Below, one piece after another: positions 5,386 to 36,411 of a DNA stretch of 64,000 nucleotides; the stretch's first letter is position 1, and each line of letters starts with the position of its first letter. Both the position numbers and the translations under genes were made by a program. Where the stretch lies: contig DATFHU010000006.1 of the NCBI GenBank assembly GCA_035248005.1, positions 17,546 to 81,545 on the forward strand, written 5' to 3'. A model generated the notes under the pieces. The model was not told the DNA's origin. It saw only the letters and a program-made list of their open reading frames with translations, and did no database searches. Source of the DNA: Candidatus Saccharimonadales bacterium. GTDB lineage: Bacteria > Patescibacteriota > Saccharimonadia > Saccharimonadales > UBA4665.

Positions 5386-5396
5386 TTGGAGGGGCA
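5386..5396 (-). repeat. tRNA-Lys 3'-end-like cassette junction (K4)
   Basis: Minus strand TGCCCCTCCAA, 10/11 match to the tRNA end; followed by hairpins and a TTTGCTACACT -10-like box before the NUDIX ATG. Confidence 0.65.
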
Positions 5397-5465
5397 TAGT
5401 TGATGCGTTGCAACTGAAATTACCCTGTCGCACTCATCTATTTTTTTGCCCGAACGAGGCTGCCG

Positions 5466-5885
5466 CTATTGTTGTTCGCGCCAGCGAAGATGGGCTTGCA
5501 GTAGCTGGCTGGCATGGTCTTCGCTCGTTGCCGGCTGCCGTAAGGGTATGTCGTACACGAACAGCGTTGCACTTATTCGGCCCTCACTGTCTTTAGCGTA
5601 TGAAAAACCAAGAGTATACCTATCGGTAGCGGTACGGCGCTTACCCAGTGTATATTTTGCGGTGCGTGTGTGATAAAGTACCAGGCAGCCTGCATAGTGG
5701 TACTGTGGCGCAATAAGTTCGTCCCAACCCTGCAGTTTTAGCGATCTTGACCATTCCTCTGTGCCGGTGCCAAGTAATTTGAAACCGGTGTTGCGTGACG
5801 TAATTGTGTCCGGATCACTAAAGACCATGTTGACAAGCTGGTCCATAGTTTGCATAGGTTCTGATTCAGGGGTAGCCTCTGACAT
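5466..5885 (-). CDS. Hypothetical protein
   Basis: 139-aa ATG-initiated ORF, co-oriented with its neighbours; no recognised motif. Confidence 0.6.
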   Translation of the reverse strand: MSEATPESEPMQTMDQLVNMVFSDPDTITSRNTGFKLLGTGTEEWSRSLKLQGWDELIAPQYHYAGCLVLYHTRTAKYTLGKRRTATDRYTLGFSYAKDSEGRISATLFVYDIPLRQPATSEDHASQLLQAHLRWREQQ

Positions 5886-6214
5886 AAAAACTAGGGTCTG
5901 ACTCTATTCCTATAATGCATAAATCATATCATTTTATTGTGAAACTTCAAGTTACCTACAGGCCTGGCCTCTAACAGATAAGGAAAATGTGAATTGGGTT
6001 AGGAAGGATAGCCTAATTGTATAGGCTACCGGTCCGTACATGCCCTCGTTATAGCTTCACGCCGAATCGCCTTTATTATAGCCCTTACGGGTATATCGCT
6101 CGCTTACAGCTAAAGCCTACCGCTCGGCCAAGCGCAGAAAACGTAACTGTCCACTGGACAATTACGTCCGTCGACATTATGAATATCGACGGTTCGAGTC
6201 CTTTAACCTTGCCA

Positions 6215-6260
6215 TACAAAAAGCCCTACCTTGCAGTAGGACTATTTGTATGGAGGGCCA
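6215..6260 (-). repeat. tRNA-Lys 3'-end cassette junction (K3) plus terminator hairpin
   Basis: 6251-6260 TGGAGGGCCA is identical to tRNA 8825-8834; adjacent hairpin TACAAAAAGCCCTAC/GTAGGACTATTTGTA. Confidence 0.75.
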
Positions 6261-6322
6261 TCATACATACTAGCGCATCTCAACTACAAGCCTCGGCGAT
6301 GCATAGTCAGCCAGAGGTGATC

Positions 6323-6877
6323 TTACGTCTTGGCTTTTCTGAACCCCAGGATAAAAGAGCCGATGACGACCACCTCGTTTATAAATAACATAGCGTAATA
6401 GGTTGCAGAGCTGTCTGTTGAATCGGCAAATAGTCTTTGATCGATAAGAAATTTATTAAAGCTCGGCATAGACATAAGCGTACATAAAGTAAAACTGTTA
6501 TTGCTGTAAGCGCCGCTTATAAAAGGTTCGTCCCATATCAGACAATTCATATCAGGGCCTGCTGGCCCTCCCTCGCTAGTTATATATAGCCTGCTGCTGT
6601 AAACATATTGTGCCGAAAGAAGTACAGCAGCTAAGGAGAAGATAATGGGCACTACGACCCCCCTAAGCTGGGGTTTCTTCTTTACGATAGATATGACTAA
6701 CACGACAATGCTGGCTGTGGCCAAGTAGAACCACTGCCAACCAAATAGAATACTCCAGACATTTGTACTTTCCTCACCGACGATCAGGTGATAGAAGAGC
6801 AGCCCGCTTATAAGGACGGCTGTCAAAAAAGTCAATAATATAATCGCCCACATCAAGTGGGCCTTAGAACGTTTCAT
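6323..6877 (-). CDS. Hypothetical membrane protein
   Basis: About 4 TMs; likely start ATG 6877, just after the TTTGGTATACT -10-like box. Confidence 0.7.
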   Translation of the reverse strand: MKRSKAHLMWAIILLTFLTAVLISGLLFYHLIVGEESTNVWSILFGWQWFYLATASIVVLVISIVKKKPQLRGVVVPIIFSLAAVLLSAQYVYSSRLYITSEGGPAGPDMNCLIWDEPFISGAYSNNSFTLCTLMSMPSFNKFLIDQRLFADSTDSSATYYAMLFINEVVVIGSFILGFRKAKT

Positions 6878-6892
6878 AACCTTGAGTATACC

Positions 6893-6948
6893 AAACAAAA
6901 AGACTCCTCCAATGAGAAGTCTCTCAAGTGCTTATGCTTGGAGGGTCA
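6893..6948 (-). repeat. tRNA-Lys 3'-end-like cassette junction (K2) plus terminator
   Basis: Minus strand TGACCCTCCAAGCATAAGC (19 bp identical to K1), then hairpin AGACT..AGTCT and TTTTTGTTTG. Confidence 0.85.
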
Positions 6949-6972
6949 TCGCAGAACTTATTAGGGCTGAGC

Positions 6973-7421
6973 TTATAAAAAGCCGAGCTTTTGTAGTGTC
7001 AATTTAGTGTTTGGACCGATTTGTGCGTTTTCCAGTTCATCGGCTACATACCATTGAGCATCACCAAAGTCATCATTGAATCTTAGGCTCACTGCGCTTG
7101 CTTCCTCATGGAGCCTGACTGTAAAGTCATAAAACTCCATTTTCATAAGGACGACTTCATTTGCATCTTTGAGCGTTTTCTTACTTTCGCCAGTTGCAAC
7201 ATTGTCTAGTCGCGTGATGGTGGCGCCAGTGATATCTATGCCTGTTTCTTCAAATATTTCACGCATAACTGCCTGAAGCTTGCTTTCGCCTGCTTCAATT
7301 CCACCGCCTGGGATAACGAGCATCCCCTGATATGTACCGCCTTTTTGTTATGACCGAGTAGTACTTTTCCGTCACTCGAAAAAATAAAGGCACCTACGAT
7401 CTTGCGGCTTGCTGTTCTCAT
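6973..7421 (-). pseudogene. NUDIX hydrolase split by a 1-nt frameshift
   Basis: MRTASRKIVGAFIFSSDGKVLLGHNK then GGTYQGMLVIPGGGIEAGES...REIFEETG; adding one A to the A5 run (T5 at 7342-7346) restores a single ORF. Confidence 0.85.
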
Positions 7422-7435
7422 TTAGTAATGATAGC

Positions 7436-7492
7436 AAACAAAAAGACCTCAGATGAACTGCGGTCTTCATAACGCTTATGCTTGGAGGGTCA
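7436..7492 (-). repeat. tRNA-Lys 3'-end-like cassette junction (K1) plus terminator
   Basis: Minus strand TGACCCTCCAAGCATAAGC, hairpin AAGACC..GGTCTT, TTTTTGTTTG, then TATCAT and ATG. Confidence 0.85.
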
Positions 7493-7606
7493 CCGTGTGC
7501 ACTATCGCAGCCGAAGTCCAGCAGGGGTAAAGCATGTCTATTTCCTTATTAAGCTAAACTCTCACTTTACATATCGAAAAAGATTGTGGTAAGGGGGGTA
7601 TCTTAA

Positions 7607-8719
7607 TCATGCGTTAAAACGGGCCTCCGCCTTCCGCGCCAGATACTCCGCTTCCACGATAATCGTCGCAATAGCCAAACGCCCAGCCTCGGTCCTTAGC
7701 CCCTCTTCATTGGGCACATTGGGTGTCAGCGCACGCAGCAAGGCGTTCCCTAGTCCTACCGAACCATCCCCTCGGATTATGTAATCGAAAGCAAAGTAGT
7801 TATCTTCGCCATAGCGTGCCGCAAAAGCATTGCGGATGAGAGTGTGGGCTGCTGCAAATGCCGGTAATCTACCGAATGCCTGTTCGGGCGGCAGCAAATG
7901 CAGTTCGGTAGCGAACAGCTTGCCGATGTCACCCCGCGGATTATCTGCATCACCCTTCGGGTTGGTCAGCCTTAACTCAATAGCCGGAGTCGCCCCCGCC
8001 AGACTAAAGACACGGATAGCGTGGAGGTAGCCTGCCTTGGAGTTATCCGTTTCAATGCCGAGTTGAGCCATTAAATCAGTGGCCACCAACAGCGGTTCGG
8101 GCTGCTGTAAAACCGCGCCGCCAGCGAATGTTATCTCTGCAAGCTTTGCTTCAAGATCACGACCAGTAACAAGATGTGCGCGAGTGCCGGGGTGTTTGTT
8201 GATGTCGCTAATATCGGAAATGGTATCTGGTTTAAGGAATACCGCTTGCTCGGCAGCCCAGTCGCGCGCATGCAGTTCGGTAATAGTTTCTATGCCGTAA
8301 GATTCAAGGCCCATTCCTTGCAGGGCATGCCAAACATCCATGCGAGTTCTTAACGCGTAACGGGCTGAGTTGTAGCCGTCGCCATTGCGGTAAGCTGCCG
8401 GATCACCGCTCGGCCAGGTAATATCACGTAGACGCCAAGCGTAGCTACCGCACTCAAGAATACCGTTTACGGGCTCGGTGGCTCTGTATGGTGTGTATTT
8501 CTTGATTCGACCCGCAGGGCCGTCGGGCTGTCCGGACTCTTCGTAGGTAGCTGGGTCTTGCGCGTCGACAAAGAGAGTGTCTACACTCAACCTGGCTAGA
8601 ATTATGGGCAGCTCGGTCTGGCGGGTTCTAACTTGCTCCAGTCCATCTGGCATTAGATGAGCAGGTAACGGTGTGCGGCCTTCAATAACTGCGGCGGGTT
8701 GGGTTAGTCTTCCTGACAT
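7607..8719 (-). CDS. Hypothetical protein, possibly a divergent ATP-grasp fold
   Basis: Start ATG 8719 (MSGRLTQ); motifs FLKPD, VLQQP, AIRVF, FAFDYII..DG occur in ATP-grasp-like order. Confidence 0.5.
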   Translation of the reverse strand: MSGRLTQPAAVIEGRTPLPAHLMPDGLEQVRTRQTELPIILARLSVDTLFVDAQDPATYEESGQPDGPAGRIKKYTPYRATEPVNGILECGSYAWRLRDITWPSGDPAAYRNGDGYNSARYALRTRMDVWHALQGMGLESYGIETITELHARDWAAEQAVFLKPDTISDISDINKHPGTRAHLVTGRDLEAKLAEITFAGGAVLQQPEPLLVATDLMAQLGIETDNSKAGYLHAIRVFSLAGATPAIELRLTNPKGDADNPRGDIGKLFATELHLLPPEQAFGRLPAFAAAHTLIRNAFAARYGEDNYFAFDYIIRGDGSVGLGNALLRALTPNVPNEEGLRTEAGRLAIATIIVEAEYLARKAEARFNA

Positions 8720-8762
8720 ATAGTCATCATAGCAAACGAGACTAGAACTTTTTAACAGATAC

Positions 8763-8789
8763 AAAAAACACCTCCAAAACAGGGAGGTG
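8763..8789 (-). terminator. Intrinsic terminator downstream of tRNA-Lys
   Basis: CACCTCC/GGAGGTG stem with a T6 tail on the minus strand. Confidence 0.8.
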
Positions 8790-8824
8790 AAATCAGAACC
8801 TAAATTACATCTGTTAAAAATCCT

Positions 8825-8901
8825 TGGAGGGCCAGGAGGGACTCGAACCCTCGACATTCTGCTTAAGAGGCAGACGCTCTAACCAGCTGAGCTACTGGCC
8901 C
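8825..8901 (-). tRNA. tRNA-Lys(CTT)
   Basis: GGGCCAG..CTGGCCC acceptor stem, D-arm TAGCTCAGCTGGTTAGAGC, anticodon loop CTCTTAA, T-loop TTCGAGT, encoded CCA. Confidence 0.97.
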
Positions 8902-23193: not shown

Positions 23194-23268
23194 GGCCCCA
23201 TCGTCTAATGGTTAGGACACCGGGTTTTCATCCCGGCAACCGGGGTTCGAATCCCCGTGGGGTCACCA
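23194..23268 (+). tRNA. tRNA-Glu(TTC)
   Basis: GGCCCCA..TGGGGTC acceptor stem, CCGGG-TTTTCAT-CCCGG anticodon arm, TTCGAAT T-loop, encoded CCA. Confidence 0.97.
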
Positions 23269-24135: not shown

Positions 24136-24307
24136 ACTTGCTCTCCTGTACTATTAATTCAGACTGTATTCTCATTGTAGATAAGTTTTGACAGTGGTCA
24201 CAGTACTGTAAGGCTCCGTAGCGTTCATGTAACATATGTTATTACTCCGTCGATATTGACTATGCCCAAAGCCTTTACCTTACGCTCAAGTTCTTCTAAA
24301 CCTCAAA

Positions 24308-24371
24308 CAAGGTTTCGACCTGACTCGCTCTGTGATTCACCATTTCGTACCACAAATATTTTTTCGAACTC
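24308..24371 (+). repeat. tRNA-Glu array junction G1
   Basis: CAAGGTTTCGACCTGACTCGCTCTGTGATTCACCA, 33/35 identical to G5; TCGAACTC motif downstream, as after the tRNA. Confidence 0.85.
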
Positions 24372-24458
24372 CGGCATAATTCGGAGTTTTTATGTTGCTC
24401 CTTAGGTAGATTGGTCTACTTGACTCGTAATGAGCTAATAGTTATACTAGTAGATACT

Positions 24459-24725
24459 ATGAGTAATTACACAGCAACTATTATCAAGACAGGAAATTCG
24501 TATGCGCTTCGCGTTCCTAAGTCGTATGTGGAGAACGCTAAGTTAGAATTAGGCCAAAAGGTACAGATTGGCGCACCTGTGGCGCTCCCAAAAGATTACG
24601 ACCCTGAGGCTGTCAAAAAGGCAGTAAGAAACCTTCAGGCCGTAGGTGCGTTCCGTTCAATCAAAGACCCTGTAGCCTGGCAACGCGAAATACGCAAAGA
24701 CCGCCCTCTGCCTGGAAGAAGCTAG
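24459..24725 (+). CDS. AbrB/MazE-type antitoxin (VapB-like)
   Basis: IIKTGNSYALRVPK AbrB motif; DPVAWQREIRKDR C-terminus; upstream of a PIN toxin. Confidence 0.85.
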   Translation: MSNYTATIIKTGNSYALRVPKSYVENAKLELGQKVQIGAPVALPKDYDPEAVKKAVRNLQAVGAFRSIKDPVAWQREIRKDRPLPGRS

Positions 24726-24733
24726 GATAAATC

Positions 24734-25096
24734 ATGTTGTGTTTTGACACGAACGTTATCATTTACCTTGGTAATCAGATGCTTGACGAAAGTATTATCG
24801 GCAAAGAACCTATTTGTTATGCCTCGGCTAGTCTCATAGAGGCGCTTGGTTACCCCGACATCTTAGCAGCAGAAGAGCAGCGTATTAAAGAGCTCTTCGA
24901 TACGATGATCGAGATACCTCTTAATGCATCTATAATCCAGGCAGCAGTGCGGCTGAGGCAGCTTAAAAGAATGAGTCTGGGTGATGCTATTGTTGCAGCA
25001 ACAGCATTGGAAAATGACTGTGTGCTCTGGACGGCAAATATTGAGGATTTTGCACATATTGACGGATTACGTCTGTATAACCCTCTAAAGACCTAA
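24734..25096 (+). CDS. vapC: PIN-domain toxin
   Basis: FDTNVIIY, E, LGDAIVAATA and T.N..DF PIN residues. Confidence 0.9.
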   Translation: MLCFDTNVIIYLGNQMLDESIIGKEPICYASASLIEALGYPDILAAEEQRIKELFDTMIEIPLNASIIQAAVRLRQLKRMSLGDAIVAATALENDCVLWTANIEDFAHIDGLRLYNPLKT

Positions 25097-25105
25097 TCAC
25101 TCTCT

Positions 25106-25181
25106 AGTGCCTTCAACTGTAGCTCAATATATTCCAACTCACCGAAGAAGGTTTCGGCCTGTTTCGCTGTTAGGTTCACCA
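25106..25181 (+). repeat. tRNA-Glu array junction G2
   Basis: 76 bp, 65/76 identical to G6 (36230-36305), ends in GGTTCACCA. Confidence 0.85.
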
Positions 25182-25267
25182 TTGCAATTATTACATTACC
25201 AACAGATGGGAAAGTTTCAGATTTTATTTTCTGGAACTTTTTGTTTTGACCTCTACCCCTGTTATTT

Positions 25268-25294
25268 CGGGGTTCGATCTCCCGTAGGCAGCCA
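25268..25294 (+). other. Isolated tRNA 3' fragment (T-arm + acceptor strand + CCA)
   Basis: CGGGG-TTCGATC-TCCCG-TAGGCAG-CCA; no D or anticodon arm upstream. Confidence 0.6.
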
Positions 25295-25496
25295 ACAATA
25301 GTTTGTCGAACACCTTGACCACGGTAAAATTGTTCTATGCATATACTCATAACCGGTGGCAGCAAGGGCATTGGCCTTGAGGCGACTAAACTCGGGATGG
25401 CAATAAACTTTGTAGGCTAGGCGTAGCTTTGACTTACCCTACAATTAATTAGCACAATTGCTCGCCATACGTTCATATGGGCAGCTCCAGACTACC

Positions 25497-25754
25497 CTAC
25501 CCGTACAACTGACTGCGTGTACCGAGCGTATCAAAAATCGCTTCGTTTTCTTTTTGTAAATATAGTGCTCGGATATCGCCTGTAACATCAATGCTACGAT
25601 ATTCTTTATATTTTCCTTTGAGCTGATGATTACGCAAAAGGGGATGGAGGGGATTATTACTAAAAATGGTGAGCCGTTCCAATAGTTTCTTGCGAGCTTC
25701 CGGGTCTAATTTTTTTGCCTGTTTGACGAAGTTTTTCGAATACGAGATTGTCAT
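25497..25754 (-). CDS. RelE/YafQ-family mRNA interferase toxin
   Basis: I.YSK.F.KQ.KKL, L..H.L.G.Y..YRSI.V.GD.R. Confidence 0.9.
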   Translation of the reverse strand: MTISYSKNFVKQAKKLDPEARKKLLERLTIFSNNPLHPLLRNHQLKGKYKEYRSIDVTGDIRALYLQKENEAIFDTLGTRSQLYG

Positions 25755-26032
25755 TACAGCTCTTTAGCTAGGAAATCGAGTGCTTTTTTGTTGGATTCAA
25801 ATGAATGGTAGTCGCCAGCTTCTATCTCTTTTCTAGAGGCTGTTAGCTGTTTGGCTGTCCTATCGTTTGGCACTTCAGGAACATCAAAAACAACACTTTG
25901 CTCGGCCGTAAAACGCCGTAGTTCATTGTTAAGAATTGCGCTGATGCTAATACCCAACTTATCGGCAGTTTCTTGCGCCAACTTTTTGAGTTTAGGATCA
26001 GTTTTGAGGTTTATGACTGCATAGTTACTCAT
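25754..26032 (-). CDS. RelB/DinJ-type antitoxin
   Basis: INLKTDPKLK..A...ADKLGISIS ribbon-helix-helix; PN motif; upstream of the toxin. Confidence 0.85.
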   Translation of the reverse strand: MSNYAVINLKTDPKLKKLAQETADKLGISISAILNNELRRFTAEQSVVFDVPEVPNDRTAKQLTASRKEIEAGDYHSFESNKKALDFLAKEL

Positions 26033-26154
26033 ACCAAAAGTATATACCTTTGGTATAGTAGTTGTCAATAATCGTAAGCAACATAAATCATATTGCCATT
26101 AATTTCAACGACACCCAAAGCCTTAAGTTTAGGATCGATATCTAAAGCATCAAG

Positions 26155-26189
26155 CAAGGTTTCGACCCGACTCGTCCTATAGTTAAACA
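26155..26189 (+). repeat. tRNA-Glu array junction G3 (degenerate core)
   Basis: CAAGGTTTCGACCCGACTCGTCCTATAGTTAAACA, 27/35 identical to G1. Confidence 0.75.
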
Positions 26190-26371
26190 TTGCAATTATT
26201 GCATCATTACAGATTAAGAAGAGTTCCATGATTTATTTTGGACTTTTTGTTTAATTCTTATCTATTATTTGAGTTCGATTCCCGGGAGGGTGATAGCGCA
26301 TGCCTATAGGGTTTCCATTACTATGAAATTATGATTGAGTTAGTATCAAATAGTTATTATGATGATTAATC

Positions 26372-27076
26372 ATGGCTAAACTTATTCTTATTCGTCATGG
26401 CCGCTCACGTGGCAATGCTAATAAAGGAATTATCCAAGGCAGTGGTCCTGACCCTGCCAATACCTTAGACGATCTTGGTGAGCGTCAAGCGCACCGGCTT
26501 GGTCAAACTTTTGCGGATCGGGAGATATCTCCTGCGGTCGTCTGGTCGTCTCCGCTGGCGCGCGCCCGGCAAACCTGTGATACTGCACTGGAAGTAATGG
26601 GTTGTAAACTACCCGTAACTGAAGACGATCGGTTGCGCGAAATGTGTAAGGGTCTGGCGGGTTTACCGGGCGGCATGGAGGGGCGGCCTCGTGGCGACGT
26701 TGAAACGCCGCAGTACTGGCTAGAGTACAAAAAGCAGGGATGGCAATTCCGTCATGGCTCACTACAAAGCGGAGGTGAAACTGCTGAAGAAGTCGGCATC
26801 CGCACTCTGTCCGCCATGAACGATATTGCCGATCACGTGGGCAGTAACGCAACCGCGTTAGTTTTTACTCATGGTCAAGCCATACGTTTCGGCATAGGTG
26901 CAGCGTTGGATTGGCCGGATATACAACAGGTAAATACTGAGTATATGTTGGGAAACTGTGAAGGTATTGTTATGGGCCGCGGTACCCGCAATCTGTCGTG
27001 GCATGTTGCCAGCCGCATTGCGTGCGCAGGCAGCCTAAACGAAACTATTATACCAGGCAGCACTGACCGGCATTAA
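26372..27076 (+). CDS. Histidine phosphatase family protein
   Basis: LIRHG, WSSPLARARQT, LREM and FTHG motifs. Confidence 0.92.
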   Translation: MAKLILIRHGRSRGNANKGIIQGSGPDPANTLDDLGERQAHRLGQTFADREISPAVVWSSPLARARQTCDTALEVMGCKLPVTEDDRLREMCKGLAGLPGGMEGRPRGDVETPQYWLEYKKQGWQFRHGSLQSGGETAEEVGIRTLSAMNDIADHVGSNATALVFTHGQAIRFGIGAALDWPDIQQVNTEYMLGNCEGIVMGRGTRNLSWHVASRIACAGSLNETIIPGSTDRH

Positions 27077-27335
27077 TTTTCCAACATTCTTACAATATTT
27101 TCCAGCCGTTTAACCGCTGTATAGCTTGTCAACTCGTTCACTCATTTGCAAACTAGGCCACATACAAAGTGTCCATAATTCCAGGAATTTATTTGCGAAA
27201 TTATATACTGGCTAGCAACCGATGCGCCAAAACAAATTATTGGCCCCATAATAGATATTATGGGGGAGCCTACCTTCATTCTCGGACAAGTGGTGATGCA
27301 ATTTTGCTGCTCCATATGTGGTGTAAAATTTTTGT

Positions 27336-28184
27336 ATGAGCTATGAAAATTTAACACCTCTTACTCAAGAGGAAATAGAGCGTATAGGGGTAAAGGAGTC
27401 CGAGCCTGGCTATCCGCCCCTGTCGAATAGACTGATTGTTCCTCGTGACCAATGGGATCAAATGGTAGCGGAGAATAGTATAATTATTCCGGATGATCCG
27501 GCTTATCACATCACTGATCATCCTAATCGTCGTAATGTTGCAGAAGATCAGCGGGATGATATCGCTACCGTTGGTCGGCCTATGTCTGCAGGGCTGGTAG
27601 CCTACTGGAAATCACTCGGTCTGCATGTAGATACTGCGGGCCGGCCGCTGCATCCGCGTGCAGCTGAGGTCTTGCCAGTGACAGGCATGTATACCGGCCC
27701 GGGCTGGAGTTATAGGTATGGCCCACAACGAATCGGCAATCTAGGCTTGCGTCGCACACGAAACAGTAGGGTGGAGTATGCGGTTGTTGCCGTACAGCGC
27801 AGAACTGTGATGTGGGGTTTGCCTGGCGGTTATGCCGAAATGGGCGAAACTCCAAGGCAAGCTGCTTTTCGGGAGGGCAGTGAGGAAGCAGGTGTTGACT
27901 TGCGCAAACAGGAACTTCAACGTCTTGTCGGACGGCTGGTGTTAAGAGACGTGCTTGCAAGGTTAAAGTGTTCTCCTAAAGACACATTACATGCTTGGCT
28001 GGAGGAGTGGTTTACAATCGTGCATAGCCCGGAAAACCCAGCCCTGGAAGGAGTTGAACTGAGGAACGGCGACACGGAAGTGCTTGAGATGGGCTGGATG
28101 GAGGCTGCGGAGATTGTAAGCCGTAAAGATTTTCTTGGCACTCACAAGAGAGTAGTCAGAGCACATGAGGGCATGGGCCAATGA
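27336..28184 (+). CDS. NUDIX hydrolase, ADP-ribose pyrophosphatase (NUDT9)-like
   Basis: GRPLHP...TG..G.G..YRYGP N-terminal motif and W.LPGG...GE....AAFRE.SEE box. Confidence 0.8.
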   Translation: MSYENLTPLTQEEIERIGVKESEPGYPPLSNRLIVPRDQWDQMVAENSIIIPDDPAYHITDHPNRRNVAEDQRDDIATVGRPMSAGLVAYWKSLGLHVDTAGRPLHPRAAEVLPVTGMYTGPGWSYRYGPQRIGNLGLRRTRNSRVEYAVVAVQRRTVMWGLPGGYAEMGETPRQAAFREGSEEAGVDLRKQELQRLVGRLVLRDVLARLKCSPKDTLHAWLEEWFTIVHSPENPALEGVELRNGDTEVLEMGWMEAAEIVSRKDFLGTHKRVVRAHEGMGQ

Positions 28185-28285
28185 GTGAATTTCAGCTTGG
28201 GAATGAACCGGTACAAAGTGTCATCATATGGCGTCATACACTTTTTAATAGATAAGCAGGCTTAACCGGGGAGGCGGCAAAAGAA

Positions 28286-28963
28286 GTGGTGAAAAGAGGT
28301 TTGAAACGTGATGATTATGACCCATGGCCTTTATTGGCGGAAGGTGTACAGCAGGCGGAATTGCTGCGCCGGGAGGTAGGACAGTTTGCCATTGATGCTT
28401 GCCTCTGCTCGCCCACTTTGCGCACCAGACAGACGGCGGATATTGTGCTTGGCGAGAGACAGATCGAGGTTGAGTATATGGAAGAGCTGCGGGAACGTGA
28501 CCGGGGAATATTTGCATATATGCCTGATGAATGGTCGGATAATCATCCCCTGTATAGAATCGGCAAGGAGTCGTTTCGGAAATGGCACCCCGGAGGTGAG
28601 GGCATGCAACCCCGAGCCGAAACAATTGAAGAAGTCATAGCTCGTATTGATTCTGCAGTGCTACGTCGGGCCGATGCCCTTGCGCCCGGAGGTTGTGTTG
28701 CCATTAGTACGCATGGCGAAACTATGGCAGCATTTCGTGGTGTACGGCGACTGGGTGCACGTGATGATGCCCGCTACGCCATGCCTGTTATTCCAAATCA
28801 TAAAGATATTAAACCCCACAAAAAGGCGAGTTGGATTGGACAGGTACAGATTGATATATATGAGCGGCGAGCAGATGGCCCTGAGATGACGCATTTCAGA
28901 ACACTCGGCTACCATAAAGGCGAGCGCTTTGGCACTGACTGGATAGAAATTGTGAGAGACTAA
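28286..28963 (+). CDS. Histidine phosphatase family protein (N-terminal RHG not visible)
   Basis: CSPTLRTRQTA, LRERDRG and ISTHGE; no RHG in the called ORF, which may be truncated or divergent. Confidence 0.75.
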   Translation: MVKRGLKRDDYDPWPLLAEGVQQAELLRREVGQFAIDACLCSPTLRTRQTADIVLGERQIEVEYMEELRERDRGIFAYMPDEWSDNHPLYRIGKESFRKWHPGGEGMQPRAETIEEVIARIDSAVLRRADALAPGGCVAISTHGETMAAFRGVRRLGARDDARYAMPVIPNHKDIKPHKKASWIGQVQIDIYERRADGPEMTHFRTLGYHKGERFGTDWIEIVRD

Positions 28964-29040
28964 TTTTCTGCCAGTGCTATTGCTCGGACGATATATTCAA
29001 TTCTCGCAAGCCTTTGTTCATTTGTTCTAGACCCGCCCAT

Positions 29041-29110
29041 AAGGTGTTCCAATTCAGACTCCACAGGGTCACCAAGTTGAAACCATATATTTTATCTTAT
29101 CGAACTCTCG
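29041..29110 (+). repeat. tRNA-Glu array junction G4
   Basis: GGGTCACCA (29066-29074) is identical to the tRNA end; TCGAACTCTCG (29100-29110) is identical to 23288-23298. Confidence 0.8.
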
Positions 29111-29310
29111 ACAGAGACGAAGAAATAGCTTCAAGTACTTGGAATTATTTCTTTAGCTCACTATTACACCTTTAGCAAGTTTTGATTCTCTTAGGGTTGT
29201 ACAGCGCAATACCCTGAATAGCTATCTGTTATATTGATGTTCGATTCCACCGGAGGCTGTCGTTTATCTTTCTGGCGTATGATTCTAAAGGTATACACTA
29301 CAATAAAGAC

Positions 29311-30126
29311 ATGAAGATAACTGTTCTAGGCTCCGGCGCGTGGGAAGGAATACCCGCTCCCTTCTGTCATTGTGGAGTATGTGTTGAAGCCACTAAGAAC
29401 CCGCATTCAATAAATAGCCGGACGCGACCTCAGTTGCTTGTGGAGAATGAAGAACAAAATTTTTTAGTAGAAGCCAGCCCTGATATTAGAATACAATCAG
29501 CCAGGTTTTCATTACCGCCAATACGAGACTTCATAATAAGTCATTGGCATTTTGACCATATGTATGGCTTACATGAACTTTTTGCATATAGCAAATATAA
29601 GGCTCATGGTTTGAATTTTTATTGCTCGAGAGATACCAAAAAAGTGCTCGATGACGAAGAATTTAACTATGTCCCAGCCGAAGTTATTGAGGTAAAGGCA
29701 TTCAAACCATTTGAACTGGCAGGAATTAAGGTCACACCCTTGCCGACATATCATATGCGTGATAGAGACGACCAAGTGGGCGAGGACCAGCTTGCGAATA
29801 CCTTTGGCTACCTGCTCGAGCATGATGGAAAGCGTGTGGCATATCTGGCGGATTATTACCGAGTTCCGCAGGCGGTTAAGGCACTACTGCGTGGAATAGA
29901 TGCTGTGATATGCGATGGTACCTACCTACTAACTGACGATTATAAAAGTTACAAGCCAAACCATATGCACGGTAAAGAAGGCATGGAACTTGCCGAAAAT
30001 TTAGGGGCAAGGCAGGTATATTACCATAGTGTGTCGCACCTCACCGGCAAAGATCACGATGCGCTTCAAGCGGCACTTCCGGCCGGTCATTCACTTACAT
30101 ACGATGGCATGAAGTTGGAATTCTAA
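29311..30126 (+). CDS. MBL-fold metallohydrolase, PhnP-like
   Basis: LGSG..GIP..FC.C..C, SHWHFDH, YH, D and H motifs. Confidence 0.92.
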   Translation: MKITVLGSGAWEGIPAPFCHCGVCVEATKNPHSINSRTRPQLLVENEEQNFLVEASPDIRIQSARFSLPPIRDFIISHWHFDHMYGLHELFAYSKYKAHGLNFYCSRDTKKVLDDEEFNYVPAEVIEVKAFKPFELAGIKVTPLPTYHMRDRDDQVGEDQLANTFGYLLEHDGKRVAYLADYYRVPQAVKALLRGIDAVICDGTYLLTDDYKSYKPNHMHGKEGMELAENLGARQVYYHSVSHLTGKDHDALQAALPAGHSLTYDGMKLEF

Positions 30127-30299
30127 GATAATTGGATCGCCGTAGGTTCACCATAAGAGATTATTGCCCATATCTGGAGCAACAAACAGGGCGCAAAAAC
30201 TTCCCCTTACAACATCCCGACAGCAATGCCTTGTGGCTCTGCCAATGTGGACTTAGCCCAATGTTGACACGGTGGTATAACAAAAGTTATACTTTAATC

Positions 30300-30536
30300 A
30301 TGAAGACAGCAATCTCTATACCAGACAATACATTCCAGTCAGCTGAGAAGCTCGCCAAGCGTCTGGGCAAATCTCGTAGTCAGTTGTATACCCAGGCCCT
30401 AAATAGTTATTTAGAGCAGAACGGTGAGAAGGGTGTGCAAGAATTGCTTGATAAAGTGTACGCTACCGAAGAATCTCAACTGCCCCCCTCGATGAGGCGA
30501 TTACAGTCCAAGGTTGTTAGTAAGGAACAATGGTAG
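30300..30536 (+). CDS. Ribbon-helix-helix antitoxin (MazF partner)
   Basis: MKTAISIPD..F..AE.LA..LG.SRSQLY..AL. Confidence 0.85.
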   Translation: MKTAISIPDNTFQSAEKLAKRLGKSRSQLYTQALNSYLEQNGEKGVQELLDKVYATEESQLPPSMRRLQSKVVSKEQW

Positions 30537-30871
30537 GCCGTGGTCAGATTTGGTGGGTGGATTTGTCTGAGCCACTGGGTTCTGAGCCGGGCTATACTAG
30601 GCCGGTCGTTATTGTGCAAGCAGATGTCTTTAACCGGAGCCGGATAAGCACGGTTATGGCGATTGTCATCACCTCCAATGTTCGCCTTGCCGAGGCCCCT
30701 GGAAACGTTCTATTGCTTGCTGATAAAACCGGGCTTAAGAAAGATTCCGTGGCGAACGTTTCTCAGACCGTAACTATTGATAAACGGGCATTGCGCGAAC
30801 AAGTTGGAGAACTCGACAACGAAACTATGCGGTTAATTGATGAGGGCATGCGTTTGGCGCTTGGTCTTTAG
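30530..30871 (+). CDS. mazF: PemK/MazF family toxin
   Basis: RGQIWWVDL..P.GSEPG..RP.VIVQ.D.FN; DS.ANVSQ..TIDK. Confidence 0.93.
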   Translation: MVGRGQIWWVDLSEPLGSEPGYTRPVVIVQADVFNRSRISTVMAIVITSNVRLAEAPGNVLLLADKTGLKKDSVANVSQTVTIDKRALREQVGELDNETMRLIDEGMRLALGL

Positions 30872-30912
30872 GGCGCTATATAATTTTGGGTCAAGTTCCT
30901 CTAAAGCTTCAG

Positions 30913-30947
30913 CAAGGTTTCGACCTGACTCGCCCTGTGGTTCACCA
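30913..30947 (+). repeat. tRNA-Glu array junction G5
   Basis: CAAGGTTTCGACCTGACTCGCCCTGTGGTTCACCA, 33/35 identical to G1. Confidence 0.85.
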
Positions 30948-31331
30948 AAAGAGAAGATGATATGATTTATATCCTCTTCTCTTTTGTAGGGCCATAGGGC
31001 CGGGTATACTCTTCTCGGCAGTGGAAAGCGGCGTATACTGAGTGGGAGGTAAGGGAATGTGCAGTGTCTATTATCAGTCAGTACGTGTTGCTCGATGGTC
31101 CCTGGCATAATGCGCATTGTGCAGTGGCGGCATAGGTTTTTAAGCTGGCAGTTGACGGCTATCTTACAGTTAGTTTCAGCAAGACTACTCAATCCGTTAT
31201 TGAAAATCCTCCATTTTGCACTTGTTGTATAGATAACAGAGACAGAGGAGCGATGAGCAGTTGCCACGCTGCGGCTTGTAATTAATGCAAGGTTCTGATA
31301 TCGTTAGCGACAACTAACGGAGTAAGAGGAT

Positions 31332-32528
31332 ATGTCCGAGTTTCGTGCTGATGTTACTGTTGTGGGCGGAGGCATCGCCGGGCTATGGTCTGCGAAAGAG
31401 CTGATCGATCAAGGGCTTACGGTTGATGTTGTCGAACGTACCGAGAGCCTTGCGAATGGCCCCACTACCAGAAACGAGGGCTGGCTGCATGCGGGCACAT
31501 ACCACTCGGTGGCCGTGTATGACGAAGAGGGCGCCAGGCAGGTAACTGAACGTACTGTATATGGTCATGACGCTATCCTTGGCTTCGTACCTGAAAGTGT
31601 CGAACACAGCCCAAGCTTCGCGATCTTCGCCGAGGAGGACCTAGTGCAAATTGCGCTTCGAAAATGGGATCAATTTAATATTCCGCACCAGGAGGTATCA
31701 AAAGGCAAGTTTGCAGCCGATGGGCTGGACACTGATAGGATAAAAGGGGCGTTTGCGGTCCGCGACCGCAGTGTAAACTCACGTGTAATCGTTGGCAGGC
31801 TGGCAGACTATATACTGGATAATGGCGGCCGAATATTCACGGGCGCAGCTCTTACCCCTACAGGCGGCACAACCGCAGACGTTGAGATTGACGGGGAGCG
31901 GCACAAATTCTCGTCCGACGCATTTTTGGTAACGGCAGGTGTTGGTACGAAAAAAGTCTTTGAGGAGATCACCGACACGCCATTCCCGATGCGTTACTTT
32001 AAGTCGCACTTATCTGTCGTGCCACGTATCAGCCAGGATAACATTTTCTACATGGACCCGCTCGAAGCCGGTTTGATGAGCCACGGCGGAGCTACCATCG
32101 TGGGCATTAACCGTGAAGCAGTAGAGGTTGAAACGCCTGAATACGGGGTATTGTTTGATAAGGTACGGCTCGTGCATGACGCCCTTCATCGTATGATGCC
32201 TGAGGTGGGTCGGTCGGCGCTTGCAAACGCTCTTGATGTCGCTTGTGTGAAAGCGGACGTAGCTGATGATGTTTCCAGACGGCGATCCGTTGATACAACG
32301 CAAGTCCTACAGGACTTAAACATTAAAGTATTTGAGCCGGTAGAGGGCTGGGTCTGTGCCATTCCTGGCAAAATGACCGAAGCACCGGCACTCGCGCGTG
32401 TGGCGGCCAACCGGATTATGAGCAGAGAATTTAGTGATTCGGAGCATGACGGTGGTACTAACCACGGGCACGCCCGGCCGCAAGTGACTTTACGACCAGC
32501 CGACCGCTGGCTGACAAGGCAGCCGTAG
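31332..32528 (+). CDS. FAD-dependent oxidoreductase (DAO/GlpA-like)
   Basis: VVGGGIAG Rossmann motif, VVER, T.RNEGWLHAG, PGKMT. Confidence 0.85.
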   Translation: MSEFRADVTVVGGGIAGLWSAKELIDQGLTVDVVERTESLANGPTTRNEGWLHAGTYHSVAVYDEEGARQVTERTVYGHDAILGFVPESVEHSPSFAIFAEEDLVQIALRKWDQFNIPHQEVSKGKFAADGLDTDRIKGAFAVRDRSVNSRVIVGRLADYILDNGGRIFTGAALTPTGGTTADVEIDGERHKFSSDAFLVTAGVGTKKVFEEITDTPFPMRYFKSHLSVVPRISQDNIFYMDPLEAGLMSHGGATIVGINREAVEVETPEYGVLFDKVRLVHDALHRMMPEVGRSALANALDVACVKADVADDVSRRRSVDTTQVLQDLNIKVFEPVEGWVCAIPGKMTEAPALARVAANRIMSREFSDSEHDGGTNHGHARPQVTLRPADRWLTRQP

Positions 32529-32565
32529 GCGTACTCACCCTATTATGTTATAGTGGCGCTTATTA

Positions 32566-33198
32566 ATGGCTACGGGAGAAAACATGGACGACTATCTAAA
32601 GAAAACACGGCAAATCAAAGGGTTCTTGGACGCAAATGAAGCTGTTGCAACTTTAGGGGCCGACAATGCCGTTCTTGACCCGTACTCGGTACTCATCAGC
32701 AAAGAGGTTAAAGTCGGCAAAGGTAATGTTTTTTACCCAAACGTCATCATTGAAGTTCAGGGCGGCGGTACAATAGCTATTGGTGACAACAACGTGTTCT
32801 ATCCCGGCACCTACCTCCTAAGTTCCGCAGGTTCCATAACTGTAGGTAATGACAATGAGTTCGGCACTAATGGTTGTACTATCAAGGCTAATATGCCGGA
32901 CGCACAAATTACCATTGGCGACAATGGCCGCTACTGTGACGGCGCCAATATTATGGGTAAGACTAGCCTCGGCAGCGGCAGTCAGGTACTCGGTGCCATT
33001 ACCGTACAGGGTTGCATATTGGCCGCTGGTGGCACATTTCAGACGCCTGATCCTGACAAACGGGCGGCTGTCCTGAAGGGTTTTGGCCTAGCGCGGGGCA
33101 TTACTCTCGAAAAAGGCCAGGTTGTTAACGGTTCGGGCAATTTTGCCGACCGACCGGTAGAATGGCAACATGACTATCACCCAAAGGTTAAGGCATAA
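32566..33198 (+). CDS. Left-handed beta-helix (hexapeptide) acyltransferase-like protein
   Basis: Repeats VKVGKGN, IAIGDNN, ITVGNDN, ITIGDNG. Confidence 0.85.
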   Translation: MATGENMDDYLKKTRQIKGFLDANEAVATLGADNAVLDPYSVLISKEVKVGKGNVFYPNVIIEVQGGGTIAIGDNNVFYPGTYLLSSAGSITVGNDNEFGTNGCTIKANMPDAQITIGDNGRYCDGANIMGKTSLGSGSQVLGAITVQGCILAAGGTFQTPDPDKRAAVLKGFGLARGITLEKGQVVNGSGNFADRPVEWQHDYHPKVKA

Positions 33199-33200
33199 GG

Positions 33201-33962
33201 ATGGTGGAACTTGGCTGTGGCCTTATTGCTATCGGGCGGCAATGGGGTACAACACCTGAAGTGCCGAGCGAAGCAGGTGCCATCACCTTCTTGCAAGGGG
33301 CATATGATGCTGGTGTGCGGTTCTTCGATACTGCACCGTCCTACGGTTTGAGCGAGGAGCGATTAGGTATTTTCTTGCGTTCATTGACACCTGAACAGCG
33401 CAGGGGGGTCCGCGTTGCTACAAAGTTCGGGGAACACTGGGACTCCCAGGAACGGACAGTATACGCTGACCACTCGCTAGATGCGCTCAAGCGTAGTTTC
33501 GATCAAAGCCGCAGCCGCTTGGGCGAGATCGTTATCCTACAGCTACACAAGACAACGCCTGCGCTGCTCAAAAGTCCAGTGATCGCTGAAGCTTTTAATT
33601 ATGCACTGGCGAACGGTGCTAAACAGATCGGAGTAAGCGTAAGCGACTCGGTTTCTGCCGAGATTGCACTGACAGATGACCGTTTTAGTGTCGTACAGCT
33701 GCCATACAACCCTGCAAGCCCGCAATTTCATGATGCAGTTGCTTCCGCCTGTGAACATGGTAAAGAGCTGCTGATTAACCGACCGTTGCAAATGGGCAAT
33801 ATTACCGCCGCAACGCAAGACAGCGAATCGAAACAGGCTGCCGTAGTGTCGGCGTTCCGCTTTATATTGCAAGAGGAGTTTGACGGGGTTATATTGACCG
33901 GCACCGCAAATCTCGGACACCTACAGGAGAACATGGCGGCATTTACTGCCGCTCAGCAGTAA
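33201..33962 (+). CDS. Aldo/keto reductase
   Basis: LGCG, FFDTAPSYG.SEERLG, ATKFG, LQLH and QLPYN motifs. Confidence 0.92.
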   Translation: MVELGCGLIAIGRQWGTTPEVPSEAGAITFLQGAYDAGVRFFDTAPSYGLSEERLGIFLRSLTPEQRRGVRVATKFGEHWDSQERTVYADHSLDALKRSFDQSRSRLGEIVILQLHKTTPALLKSPVIAEAFNYALANGAKQIGVSVSDSVSAEIALTDDRFSVVQLPYNPASPQFHDAVASACEHGKELLINRPLQMGNITAATQDSESKQAAVVSAFRFILQEEFDGVILTGTANLGHLQENMAAFTAAQQ

Positions 33963-33969
33963 ATTTGGC

Positions 33970-34578
33970 ATGAAAACAATCGTCAACGAAGACATCAACA
34001 GGCACGTCAATGGCTATATGGTTAACACCGTGCCGAGTTTGGCAAACCGCCAAAAAGTAGCCGACTTTCAAGCCAAACTCGCAGACCAATTTGGTAAGAG
34101 CCTGTGGTTGACACCGTCAGGTACGCTGCATATCACTCTCATGGACTGGATTGCGCCGCTGGTGGACTACGGAGAAGCTAAAGACAAGTTATTCAAAAAA
34201 TACTTTGCCGAATACGATGAAGCCCTCACTGATCTCACCGCACATGAGAAGCCTATTACCGTGCATTTCGATATGGTAAAGGCAACACCCGGCGCTATCA
34301 TTCTGACCGGAGAAGATGATGGAAGCTTTCAACGTATTCGCGATGGCTTTCTTGGCAAGGCCGCGCTCCTGCCAGGCACCAAGCAGCCGCCAACCATTAT
34401 TCACTCGAGTCTTGCCCGCTATACTGCCGAGCAGGACTTGGGACCGATTGCCGAATTTGTGGCCAATAATAACATTGTGTCATTCGACCACACCGTAACG
34501 CATTTCCGGCTCGTCCAGGAACACATAGCACCGCAGCTTAATTATACCCTTATTAAGGAGTACTCACTTGGGGGATAG
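33970..34578 (+). CDS. 2H phosphoesterase (2'-5' RNA ligase-like) family protein
   Basis: Two Hx[T/S] motifs: LHITL and IHSSL. Confidence 0.8.
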   Translation: MKTIVNEDINRHVNGYMVNTVPSLANRQKVADFQAKLADQFGKSLWLTPSGTLHITLMDWIAPLVDYGEAKDKLFKKYFAEYDEALTDLTAHEKPITVHFDMVKATPGAIILTGEDDGSFQRIRDGFLGKAALLPGTKQPPTIIHSSLARYTAEQDLGPIAEFVANNNIVSFDHTVTHFRLVQEHIAPQLNYTLIKEYSLGG

Positions 34579-34585
34579 GAAACAT

Positions 34586-35026
34586 ATGAAAGTACTTGTT
34601 ACCCGTGGTGCAGGTTATATAGGGGCACATACGGTCGTTGAGCTATGTACGCGTGGATATGAGGTTGTCATTTTGATAATCTCTTTAACAGTACCTCCGA
34701 AGTCATTGCGCGGGTGCAAAGTATAATCGGCTTCAAACTGCCGTACTACGAGGATGATGTACGGGATAAGGCGTTGCTTGTCCGCTTAAGTACTGGCAAA
34801 GGCGTGTCGGTACTTGAGATGATTCATGCGTTCGAGAAAGCAGCGGGCAAAGTATACCATATGAGATTGTCGGCCGACGCTCAAGTGATCTACCAAGCTA
34901 TTACGCAGATGCCCCTGAAAGGCTCAAACTGAACTTGGGCTGCACGCTGAAAAAGCCATTGAAGATGCTTGCGCCGACAGTTGGCGCTGGCAGTCATGTA
35001 ATCCGGATAGATATCCATTGCGATAG
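34586..35026 (+). pseudogene. galE: UDP-glucose 4-epimerase remnant
   Basis: MKVLVT.GAGYIG.HT start, frameshifts, a large internal deletion joining to TGKGVSVLEM..AFEKA, and a C-terminal DSWRWQ..NP. Confidence 0.85.
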
Positions 35027-35119
35027 ACGCTCTTGTAGTATAATGGCATGGCTACACTCATTGACAAAACAGCACTGGCAAGATTACGACAACGAGATGC
35101 AGCAAGTTAGGAGTATACA

Positions 35120-36085
35120 TTGCGTAAAGACAAACAGATTCTGATTGCTGGCGGAGCTGGCTTTATTGGCTCTCATTTATGTGAAGCATATCTTGCGGAG
35201 GGCGCTCATGTGACATGCATAGACAATACCTCTACCGGGAGAAAACAGAACATCCGTCAGTTTATTAAGGAGCCTAACTTCTCTTTTCATCAAGTTGATA
35301 TCTGCGAATCCTTGCCTGCAGAAGTTACGAAGCAGAAGTACGATTTCATCCTGAACTTGGCTTCTCCGGCGAGTCCGCCAAAGTATCAGGAACTAGCCAT
35401 TGAGACACTTCTTGTAGGCGCGATTGGAACAAAAAATTTACTAGATCTAGCCAGAAGGGATAACGCTCGATTTTTCCACGCGTCTACCAGTGAAGTATAC
35501 GGTGATCCGACCGTTCATCCTCAGCTTGAATCCTACTATGGCAACGTGAATTCCTATGGCCCGCGTGCCATGTATGATGAGGCGAAGCGCTTTAGTGAAG
35601 CATTGATCTATGTTTACAGAAACAAGTATGGGCTTTCGACTGGTACCGCCCGCATTTTCAATACATATGGTCCCGGAATGGATCCTGAAGATGGCCGTGT
35701 TGTTTCAAACTTCATAACCCAGGCGCTTGCAGGCAAGCCACTGACAATTTATGGTGATGGTAGTCAGACACGAAGCTTTTGCTACGTTGATGACCTCGTC
35801 AAAGGAATCATGAAGTTGGCTGCATCGGACGAAGAGGGGCCAATCAACCTGGGGAATCCGAGTGAGTTCACTGTGTTAGAGTTAGCCGACCAGATTATCG
35901 AGTTAGCTGGAACGCAATCGAAACTAGAGCATCACCCCCTTCCTGTTAATGACCCGACACAAAGACAACCAAATATTTCTAAGGCGAAGGCTAAACTGGC
36001 ATGGGAGCCACGAGTATCCCTTCATGACGGTTTAGGCAAGACTATTACGTATTTTAGAGAAACTCTGGGTATCTCTAGTTATTGA
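35120..36085 (+). CDS. UDP-glucuronate decarboxylase (UDP-xylose synthase) family SDR
   Basis: GGAGFIGSHL, NLASPASP, STSEVYGDP..HPQ.E.Y.GNVN..GPR..YDEAKR, DGRVVSNF and GDGSQTRSFCYV motifs. Confidence 0.92.
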   Translation: MRKDKQILIAGGAGFIGSHLCEAYLAEGAHVTCIDNTSTGRKQNIRQFIKEPNFSFHQVDICESLPAEVTKQKYDFILNLASPASPPKYQELAIETLLVGAIGTKNLLDLARRDNARFFHASTSEVYGDPTVHPQLESYYGNVNSYGPRAMYDEAKRFSEALIYVYRNKYGLSTGTARIFNTYGPGMDPEDGRVVSNFITQALAGKPLTIYGDGSQTRSFCYVDDLVKGIMKLAASDEEGPINLGNPSEFTVLELADQIIELAGTQSKLEHHPLPVNDPTQRQPNISKAKAKLAWEPRVSLHDGLGKTITYFRETLGISSY

Positions 36086-36229
36086 GTGACTTGAGTTGCG
36101 CCCATCGTTCTAGATAATGCTAGTTCGAAAACTCACTCTAAGATCAGAGGCACCTTCAAAGCTGCCATTATGAGTTTTTAAACATTCGCAAATATCTAAG
36201 CCCTAGAGCCATTTCTGTTCTACATGCCC

Positions 36230-36305
36230 AGTGCTTTCAGCTGTGCCTCAATATATTCCAACTCACCGAAGAGAGGTTCGACCTGTTTCGTCGTTAGGCT
36301 CACCA
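36230..36305 (+). repeat. tRNA-Glu array junction G6
   Basis: 76 bp, 65/76 identical to G2, ends in GGCTCACCA. Confidence 0.85.
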
Positions 36306-36411
36306 GTACGAAAATTATTCTACAGGATATCTCTGTTATTTTGGTATTCGACCCGCCATAATCGAATCGCATACAAAGTTTCACTAAGGAATATTAAACG
36401 GGTTGTGAATT

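Follow-up and report, generated by a model that had tools for sequence, protein, structure and literature searches.

Conserved antisense tails at the tRNA-Glu junctions of a Saccharibacteria cassette array probably encode the C-terminal ends of large serine recombinases

Downstream of a tRNA-Glu gene in a Candidatus Saccharimonadales genome, six junctions (G1–G6) bound a series of small gene cassettes, and each carries on the strand opposite the tRNA a short reading frame that begins at a copy of the tRNA 3′ end. The locus raises the question of what these frames are: small genes, DNA sites in which an open frame is incidental or parts of a larger protein. The array lies in a stretch of 64 000 nucleotides (assembly GCA_035248005.1, contig DATFHU010000006.1, positions 17 546–81 545 of the forward strand), referred to in the following as the window. 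The micro-frames are probably the left (P) arms of attachment sites used by large serine recombinases (LSRs) and would supply the last ∼30 residues of the enzyme. In related genomes the LSR gene crosses the core of the attachment site, its end is encoded by the tRNA when the element is integrated there, and the tail at the far end of the element is in frame and conserved. The copies in the window are relics: six orphan tails on six cassettes that all lack an integrase, with two of the tails frameshifted, in a genome without an LSR of the tRNA-Glu type.

The junctions are listed in Table 1. Translation from the base after ...TCACCA reproduces every minus-strand reading of the original prediction for G1–G6 and the tRNA, including both frameshifts (two of the six tails, G1 and G5). 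The last bases of the tRNA-Glu, GGGTCACCA, form a core that is common to every junction and that is also found in the attL/attR pairs of relatives. The first two codons of the copies (NTG GTG) are the reverse complement of CAC-CAN, i.e. of the ...TCACCA end of the tRNA plus one base, and the first base of codon 1 lies just beyond the shared core, on the side of the neighbour. The window copies display pairwise DNA identities of 63–88% over 57–88 nt, five of them match a profile of the set with E = 2e-16 to 2e-18, and their similarity is more than chance. The claim of one conserved micro-peptide at each junction holds for G1, G2, G3, G5 and G6; G4 carries a second tail family (hhalign P = 0.06). 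An origin as the N-terminus of a disrupted host gene, or as a small gene family present elsewhere, was ruled out, as tblastn matches in the source genome occur only in two tRNA-Glu arrays.

The recombinase search called for in the original prediction located such C-terminal ends on LSRs that adjoin tRNA-Glu in relatives, and its main proposal, a recombinase tail whose gene spans attP and reads antisense into the tRNA, was supported. In relative G047 a 526-residue LSR lies directly behind the tRNA-Glu on the opposite strand and ends with ...NDENFVMVIPRRVELLLPG and a stop 41 nt inside the tRNA, in the peptide frame; its domains match Pfam PF00239 (Resolvase, E = 1.6e-24) and PF07508 (Recombinase, E = 1.4e-7). 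A search of relatives with this protein gave at least 14 LSRs that end within a detected tRNA-Glu (ttc or ctc), again 41 nt inside and in the peptide frame, together with three further LSRs whose identical tail stands at the end of a contig and, in sister clades, nine that end in tRNA-Met and one that ends in tRNA-Asn. Since tRNA-Glu, tRNA-Met and tRNA-Asn are all entered in this way, a gene that spans its own attachment site is a trait of LSRs across the clade. The source genome itself contains seven LSR genes, of which four end 65–71 nt antisense inside tRNAs (for Gly, Ala, Arg and Phe) and a fifth ends in a tRNA-like remnant (Table 1). For the four, a search with a 14-nt core gave one possible tRNA-Ala far end.

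The far ends of the elements provide the second half of the gene. Seven LSR-bearing tRNA-Glu elements (3.6–6.6 kb) contain a distal second core, (A/G)GGGTCACCA, followed by a conserved antisense tail that is open and in frame. These tails belong to two families, type iii (e.g. LVTLIESNWNSILSEIARWWGLLR...) and type iv (e.g. LVTLPHPIYSSIVAEVVRWNDVIRN...), and G4 of the window is of type iii, a family seen at the far ends of those tRNA-Glu elements that carry an integrase. The attL and attR of these elements have only 9–10 nt in common, so that a crossover within the core, which is where it is likely to take place, would make LSR frame and tail continuous in the circular form. LSRs that lie behind other cassettes read into the tails of those cassettes. 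In G077, with two elements in tandem, the distal and intact LSR of 559 residues crosses the junction into the tail of the proximal element, MVNHLSSNWNDILTELHDWYNLL..., which is of the G4 type. Four frames enter a type i tail, the type of G2. One is an LSR frame of 385 residues on a metagenome contig (L168), open from the first base of the contig, which runs through ...NTTKLSSIYRLLDTKRGTEVPAYAY (with VPAYAY before the junction) into LVNLTTTQVETFFGELEYIEQQLKALGV...; the second is a 5′-truncated LSR remnant of 225 residues in G256 (L046 7795–8469), with ...ISPLYRGITAVNQADLDKNSS before the junction and LVNLATTQVETLFGEWEYIEPELQWLGL and a stop after it; the third is an LSR frame of 152 residues (P0039/L088, 238–720); and the fourth is a deletion fusion of 80 residues in G047. 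The G256 and P0039 remnants are independent of each other; in both only the C-terminal 150–200 residues are left (the end of the coiled coil, the last zinc-ribbon strands and the tail), each with a possible start codon, which reflects fortuitous decay or else the retention of a fragment that has some separate use.

These arrangements suggest a simple scheme. The integrase gene is located at the tRNA-proximal end of its element, on the strand opposite the tRNA, and reads without a stop as far as the presumed crossover core (A/G)GGGTCACCA, so that the DNA to the left of the core supplies the last codons of the enzyme. Directly behind tRNA-Glu these are the 13 codons of the antisense tRNA (LVTPRGFEPRLPG and a stop); on the circle or behind another cassette they would be a helix-forming tail of 28–45 codons. 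New units would enter at the tRNA-proximal site, and each integration would leave a single arm at the far end of the insert, so that stacked insertions would show one tail per junction. Cassettes without an integrase would be mobilized in trans.

Whether the tails are conserved as protein or as DNA was addressed by comparing 31 ungapped type i copies, with 38 copies used for counts of open frames. A coding signal is present. The peptide frame is open in 35 of the 38 copies and the other five frames in 1, 1, 2, 9 and 15; three stops are observed in the peptide frame against 6.5 expected from column-shuffled controls (P = 0.03). The ratio of nonsynonymous to synonymous substitution rates (dN/dS) is lower in the peptide frame (0.41) than in any of the other five (0.64–1.44). 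In codons 20–28 the diversity at positions 1, 2 and 3 is 0.41, 0.30 and 0.61, with the third position exceeding the second (Wilcoxon P = 0.004, permutation P = 0.0009, unchanged at one copy per locus), and residues are kept by synonymous switching, with five codons used for Leu23, six for Leu26 and four for Gly27, and also at Lys24. The codon-position bias that the original prediction had proposed to look for is therefore found. The opposite reading, a recombinase-binding arm that is conserved purely as DNA, would fit codons 1–19, where the three positions are about equally conserved (0.24, 0.18 and 0.20) and where codons 8–11 are the antisense of a T-loop-like sequence, GGTTTCGACC, placed 6–7 nt farther from the core than the T-loop of the tRNA itself (in type iii arms, TTCGA departs from the tRNA position by no more than 1 nt). 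It would also fit the two frameshifts among the six window copies. The three-base periodicity and synonymous switching in codons 20–28, the single frame of six that stays open and the deficit of stops all argue against it, as does the length of the conserved stretch, which at 84 nt exceeds the ∼20–25 bp given for a serine-integrase half-site, with full att sites of 40–50 bp, in a preprint (bioRxiv 10.1101/2025.05.02.651858). Conservation as DNA alone is thus improbable. Because codons 8–19 are frozen at all three positions, a DNA-site constraint would act in addition, and these codons may be a recombinase half-site overlaid on the coding tail. The sequence would then be kept for two joint reasons, as a protein-coding tail, for which the coding signal speaks, and as a putative recombinase-binding half-site.

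Selection at the protein level fits a recombinase tail and a stand-alone gene alike. The original prediction had offered as its alternative that the intact ATG-started copies are expressed from the junction as small amphipathic-helix proteins, for example recombination directionality factors (RDFs) or regulators. Almost all copies lack an upstream integrase and still keep the frame open in 35 of 38 cases, the constraint in codons 20–28 is of the kind expected for such proteins, 148 short open reading frames of this kind have been called as genes in public data, and an AT-rich TGnAATAAT-like box stands just before the ATG in G2 and G3. The details of the 5′ end speak against expression from the junction. 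Only 15 of the 31 copies have ATG as their first codon (CTG in six, TTG in four and GTG in three, with no start codon in the remaining three), and the first base of that codon falls outside the shared core, in the DNA of the neighbour. In most copies a hairpin with a T-run lies on the same strand ∼20 nt upstream, no Shine–Dalgarno sequence is seen, and a consensus scan of the minus strand directly upstream of G1–G3 gave no promoter-like site. The position of the stop ranges from 28 to more than 44 codons, and at four loci the segment is the end of an LSR frame. The stand-alone reading is accordingly unlikely, and the proposal of expressed directionality peptides was not upheld.

As the end of a recombinase, the tail has features of a helix. 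The hydrophobic residues V9, L12, L16, I19, L23 and L26 follow one another at intervals of 3-4-3-4-3, the pattern of an amphipathic or coiled-coil helix. In an AlphaFold2 model of the G077 LSR with its tail (LSR-B), long helices (residues 356–452) lie between β-strand segments, and a zinc-ribbon domain with a coiled-coil insert is followed by a helix at residues 521–542 of low confidence (predicted local distance difference test score, pLDDT, ∼50–60). The tail may affect the activity, stability or directionality of the enzyme; more speculatively, the helix could alter the activity or the direction of the integrase.

Several observations weigh against the recombinase-tail interpretation. No match to Resolvase or Phage_integrase was found on the contig, the array stands without a recombinase, and a search of the source genome for relatives of the tRNA-Glu LSRs gave none at E <= 1e-30. 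Throughout the arrays examined, the type i and ii tails sit on cassettes without an integrase, and the integrase-bearing elements carry types iii and iv. In G047, for example, the junction at L047 ∼6893 has on one side an LSR element, whose tail is of type iv, and on the other a RelE/RHH cassette, whose tail is of type i; in L088 a Fic cassette is closed by a type i tail, and a type iii tail comes after it at 1691. The LSRs that enter type i tails are therefore neighbours of the cassettes and not same-element partners, and a recombinase tail by itself leaves the protein-level constraint on the tails of integrase-less cassettes unexplained. Full-length LSRs with a type i tail are absent from the 148 profile matches among 1.84 billion cluster representatives, where the genuine matches have at most 186 residues (in three longer proteins only short repeated stretches aligned, with E > 1e-5), and from 90%-identity protein clusters queried with a chimera of LSR and tail. 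The type i and type iii tails align in register, but the hhalign P value given above does not establish their homology. A query with the C-terminal 60 residues of the G077 LSR likewise gave no full-length LSR with a type i tail, nor did viral contigs; these negatives from protein collections are weak, as clustering at 50% identity can mask tail-bearing variants under tRNA-tailed representatives. Recombinase remnants were also sought within the window cassettes and none was found, the frames upstream of the cores closing within 8–63 codons. We nevertheless regard the tails as P arms that probably encode the LSR C-terminus.

An extension of this interpretation would account for the constraint. 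The tail could be a functional, exchangeable module of the integrase, such that the integration state, and even the neighbouring cassette, would set the activity or direction of the enzyme without a separate RDF. An LSR directly behind the tRNA would then be a helix-less enzyme, and one on the circle, or one with an integrase-less cassette inserted behind it, would regain the helix from the P arm of the cassette. By donating a working tail, a cassette would favour its own onward mobilization, which would explain the protein-level constraint on integrase-less tails. We consider this extension doubtful.

On the tRNA strand the repeated unit consists of the antisense tail (∼84 nt), the core (G)GTCACCA, an AT-rich spacer and a hairpin with a T-run. 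On its 3′ side, each junction and each tRNA-Glu of the genus has a hairpin of this kind, whose sequence varies. The sequence that follows the CCA of tRNA-Glu differs in nearly every genome of the genus and nearly always opens with a terminator-like hairpin. This agrees with insertion at the end of the tRNA, each arriving unit providing a new terminator for the tRNA. One cassette class has a right-arm motif, TTTCGTACCAnnAATATTTTnnCGAA, 3′ of the core (window 24343–24372 and L047 6894–6925). It also occurs directly after tRNA-Glu in G109 and at metagenome loci L146, L149, L153, L160 and L182, and is probably the P′ half-site of its class. Read antisense at G1, this right-arm motif gives the SSKKYLWYE of the original prediction. 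Decayed copies of the tRNA-Glu 3′ end lie ∼75–110 nt behind several cores, past the hairpin; besides the copy behind G2 (Table 1), similar ones are present in the window at ∼26270–26300 and 36328–36360 and on contig C14 of the source genome at ∼184700–184760. They could be vestiges of former (secondary) att sites or of a different type of element.

A separate feature of the hairpins was noted in L093, L094 and L095 (G285, G288 and G078), where the tRNA terminator hairpin lies within the last codons of the integrase, in the first ∼35 nt after the CCA of tRNA-Glu. The conserved protein motif KKDLSxSEKSL(L)V is there the antisense of AAAGGGACTTTTCCGATACGGAAAGGTCTTTTTT, so that one stretch doubles as tRNA terminator and coding sequence.

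The tails are tied to tRNA-Glu well beyond the window. In the source genome (1.5 Mb, 22 contigs) tblastn confines the copies to the window array and to a second array at a tRNA-Glu(ctc) on contig C14, which adds three more copies, with readings MVTLTTTQVETFFGELEYIEPRLKVLGVPV (closed by a stop) and MSYKASQVETLFEVLEELDPKLKALGVV.... The peptide profile matches 23 of the 301 family genomes, which belong to 11 genera, as well as members of two other families of the order and 54 metagenome loci. Among 14 larger loci fetched, tRNA-Glu is present in ten, with all copies downstream and on the opposite strand; every tRNA seen at the metagenome loci is a tRNA-Glu, also on the opposite strand. Elsewhere in the window, a simple 14-nt core search of the region 2448–8901, with tRNA-Lys(ctt) at 8825–8901, gave no clear tail-bearing junctions, although the junction type there may differ.

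The cassettes themselves resemble those of integrons, and a further reading takes the array as an integron cassette array whose junctions would be attC sites of the integron type or some other structured element of RNA or DNA. Cassettes of one to five genes, rich in toxin–antitoxin pairs and small enzymes and bounded by a repeat of ∼60–250 nt, would agree with this, and GTTAGGT, GTTAGGC and GTTAAAC near the core fit the core-site consensus GTTRRRY. The contig has no tyrosine recombinase, the only two in the genome being on contigs C10 and C4; an RNAalifold consensus of 22 copies (−4.3 kcal/mol, nine pairs) shows no covariation and no conserved hairpin; the genes run in both orientations; and the junctions share a tRNA 3′ end and are flanked by serine recombinases in relatives. 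With neither an IntI-type integrase by the array nor an attC-like fold, this reading was ruled out and retains next to no likelihood. Type II toxin–antitoxin pairs (AbrB-like/PIN, RelB/YafQ and RHH/MazF) are located at 24411–25096, 25497–26068 and 30132–30871, one in each of three junction-bounded cassettes.

Table 1. Coordinates of the tRNA, junction and recombinase features. Positions without a contig name refer to the window; C4, C14, C17 and C20 are contigs of the source genome.
Feature	Position	First codon base	Strand	Reading	Remarks
tRNA-Glu(ttc)	23194..23268		+		Integration target (attB-left); ARAGORN
tRNA antisense frame		23269	-	LVTPRGFEPRLPG, stop	
G1	24246..24343	24343	-	Type ii tail MVNHRASQVETLFEV, stop, then -2 frame LEELERKVKALGIVNIDG	One frameshift; putative P arm of HxlR + glyoxalase cassette
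G2	25093..25182	25182	-	Intact type i tail MVNLTAKQAETFFGELEYIELQLKALESD, stop	29 codons + stop; profile E = 3.8e-17; putative P arm of AbrB-like/PIN toxin–antitoxin cassette
G3	26065..26190	26190	-	Intact type ii tail MFNYRTSRVETLLDALDIDPKLKALGVVEINGNMIYVAYDY, stop	41 codons + stop; putative P arm of YafQ/RelB cassette
G4	28977..29075	29075	-	Intact type iii tail LVTLWSLNWNTLWAGLEQMNKGLRELNISSEQ, stop; family LVTLWSLNWNTLWAGLEQ...	Closes His_Phos/NUDIX/His_Phos cassette
G5	30869..30948	30948	-	Type ii tail LVNHRASQVETL, frameshift, then AEALEELDPKLYSAL	Putative P arm of metallo-beta-lactamase-fold + RHH/MazF cassette
G6	36220..36306	36306	-	Type i tail LVSLTTKQVEPLFGELEYIEAQLKALGM, stop	28 codons + stop; CTG as codon 1; final junction, closes five-gene enzyme cassette
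G1 right side (putative P′ of next cassette)	24344..24395		+	Motif TTTCGTACCAnnAATATTTT	Followed by terminator hairpin 24366-24389; motif recurs in relatives and metagenomes
G2 right side	25183..25248		+		AT-rich spacer, then hairpin with T-run ∼25213-25248
Decayed tRNA-Glu 3′ end	25254..25296		+	T-arm to ...GCAGCCA	Behind G2 hairpin
LSR	C17:105366-107054				Ends in tRNA-Gly(gcc)
LSR	C4:72879-74735				Ends in tRNA-Ala(ggc)
LSR	C20:32755-34470				Ends in tRNA-Arg(gcg)
LSR	C17:121047-122831				Ends in tRNA-Phe
Fifth LSR	C14:66608-68347			...GLDSNQRPSGY...	Ends in tRNA-like remnant
C14 stack, locus L003	C14:182197-184896			Intact type i tail, 183671-183760	Closes Fic-domain cassette
C14 stack, second cassette	182197-182316 (C14)			Type ii tail	Closes second cassette

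The P-arm interpretation explains a recurrent and easily misannotated feature of Saccharibacteria, in which short 'hypothetical' proteins of 30–100 residues (148 clusters in public collections) would be arms of attachment sites. The combination of a tRNA-end core and an in-frame tail is a simple marker for the limits of cassettes in tRNA-anchored stacks. The conservation and coding signature of the codons beyond the core make it testable whether a serine integrase senses its own integration state through its C-terminus; if this were true, it would add a new, RDF-independent control of directionality to a family of enzymes in wide use for genome engineering.

A full-text literature search combining serine recombinase, Saccharibacteria and tRNA returned nothing relevant; the systems compared here are from other organisms. 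The integrases of phiC31, Bxb1, A118/LI and SPbeta (SprA) resemble the partner LSRs in their Resolvase and Recombinase domains, in a zinc ribbon with a coiled-coil insert (modelled here) and in a short att core (9–10 nt here). In these classical phage LSR systems attP lies outside the integrase gene and a separate RDF protein sets directionality. In the myxophage Mx8 (IntP/IntX), attP is reportedly located inside the gene of a tyrosine integrase, and integration at a tRNA exchanges its C-terminal part for a short host-encoded end. Mx8 thus shares an attP within the integrase gene with the elements described here; it is a phage tyrosine recombinase and is not known to form stacks of integrase-less cassettes. 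Integrons resemble the window array in their small, toxin–antitoxin-rich cassettes, the repeated recombination site and growth from one fixed chromosomal point, and differ from it in that the array has no IntI and no attC hairpin, is anchored at a tRNA 3′ end and contains genes in both orientations. In the integration-dependent immunity of the mycobacteriophages BPs and Brujita, attP lies in coding sequence and attB overlaps a tRNA, so that a swap of the C-terminal tail alters the behaviour of the protein, and no separate directionality factor is encoded, according to a secondary account (Broussard et al., 2013, via PMC9262239). The protein that is cut in BPs and Brujita is the repressor rather than their tyrosine-type integrase, and the tail exchanged by integration is an ssrA-like degradation tag (-LAA); in the tails described here, by contrast, the extreme C-terminus is variable and the conserved part is an internal amphipathic helix.

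The closest precedent is provided by the ssrA islands of Dehalococcoides, the one case in which a serine integrase gene overlapping its own attachment site has been noted. As in the elements described here, the gene overlaps the att site and elements are stacked in tandem at one site. The dsiB gene always overlaps attL at its 3′ end, with a stop in ssrA or in the neighbouring island, and the authors suggested that a whole gene may exist only in the circular form or where it follows a neighbouring island with the '3′ gene fragment'; they judged the overlapping C-terminal part, which is divergent in length and sequence, to be probably not functional (McMurdie et al., 2011, PMC3146451). The target of DsiB is the transfer-messenger RNA (tmRNA) gene and that of the Saccharibacteria elements is a tRNA. 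The islands of Dehalococcoides still have their integration module, with DsiB, DsiA and others, whereas the units found here are mostly integrase-less cassettes of one to five genes. In contrast to the divergent DsiB overlap, the codons on the far side of the core in Saccharibacteria are conserved across genera and carry a coding signature of constraint at the protein level, which is new with respect to Dehalococcoides.

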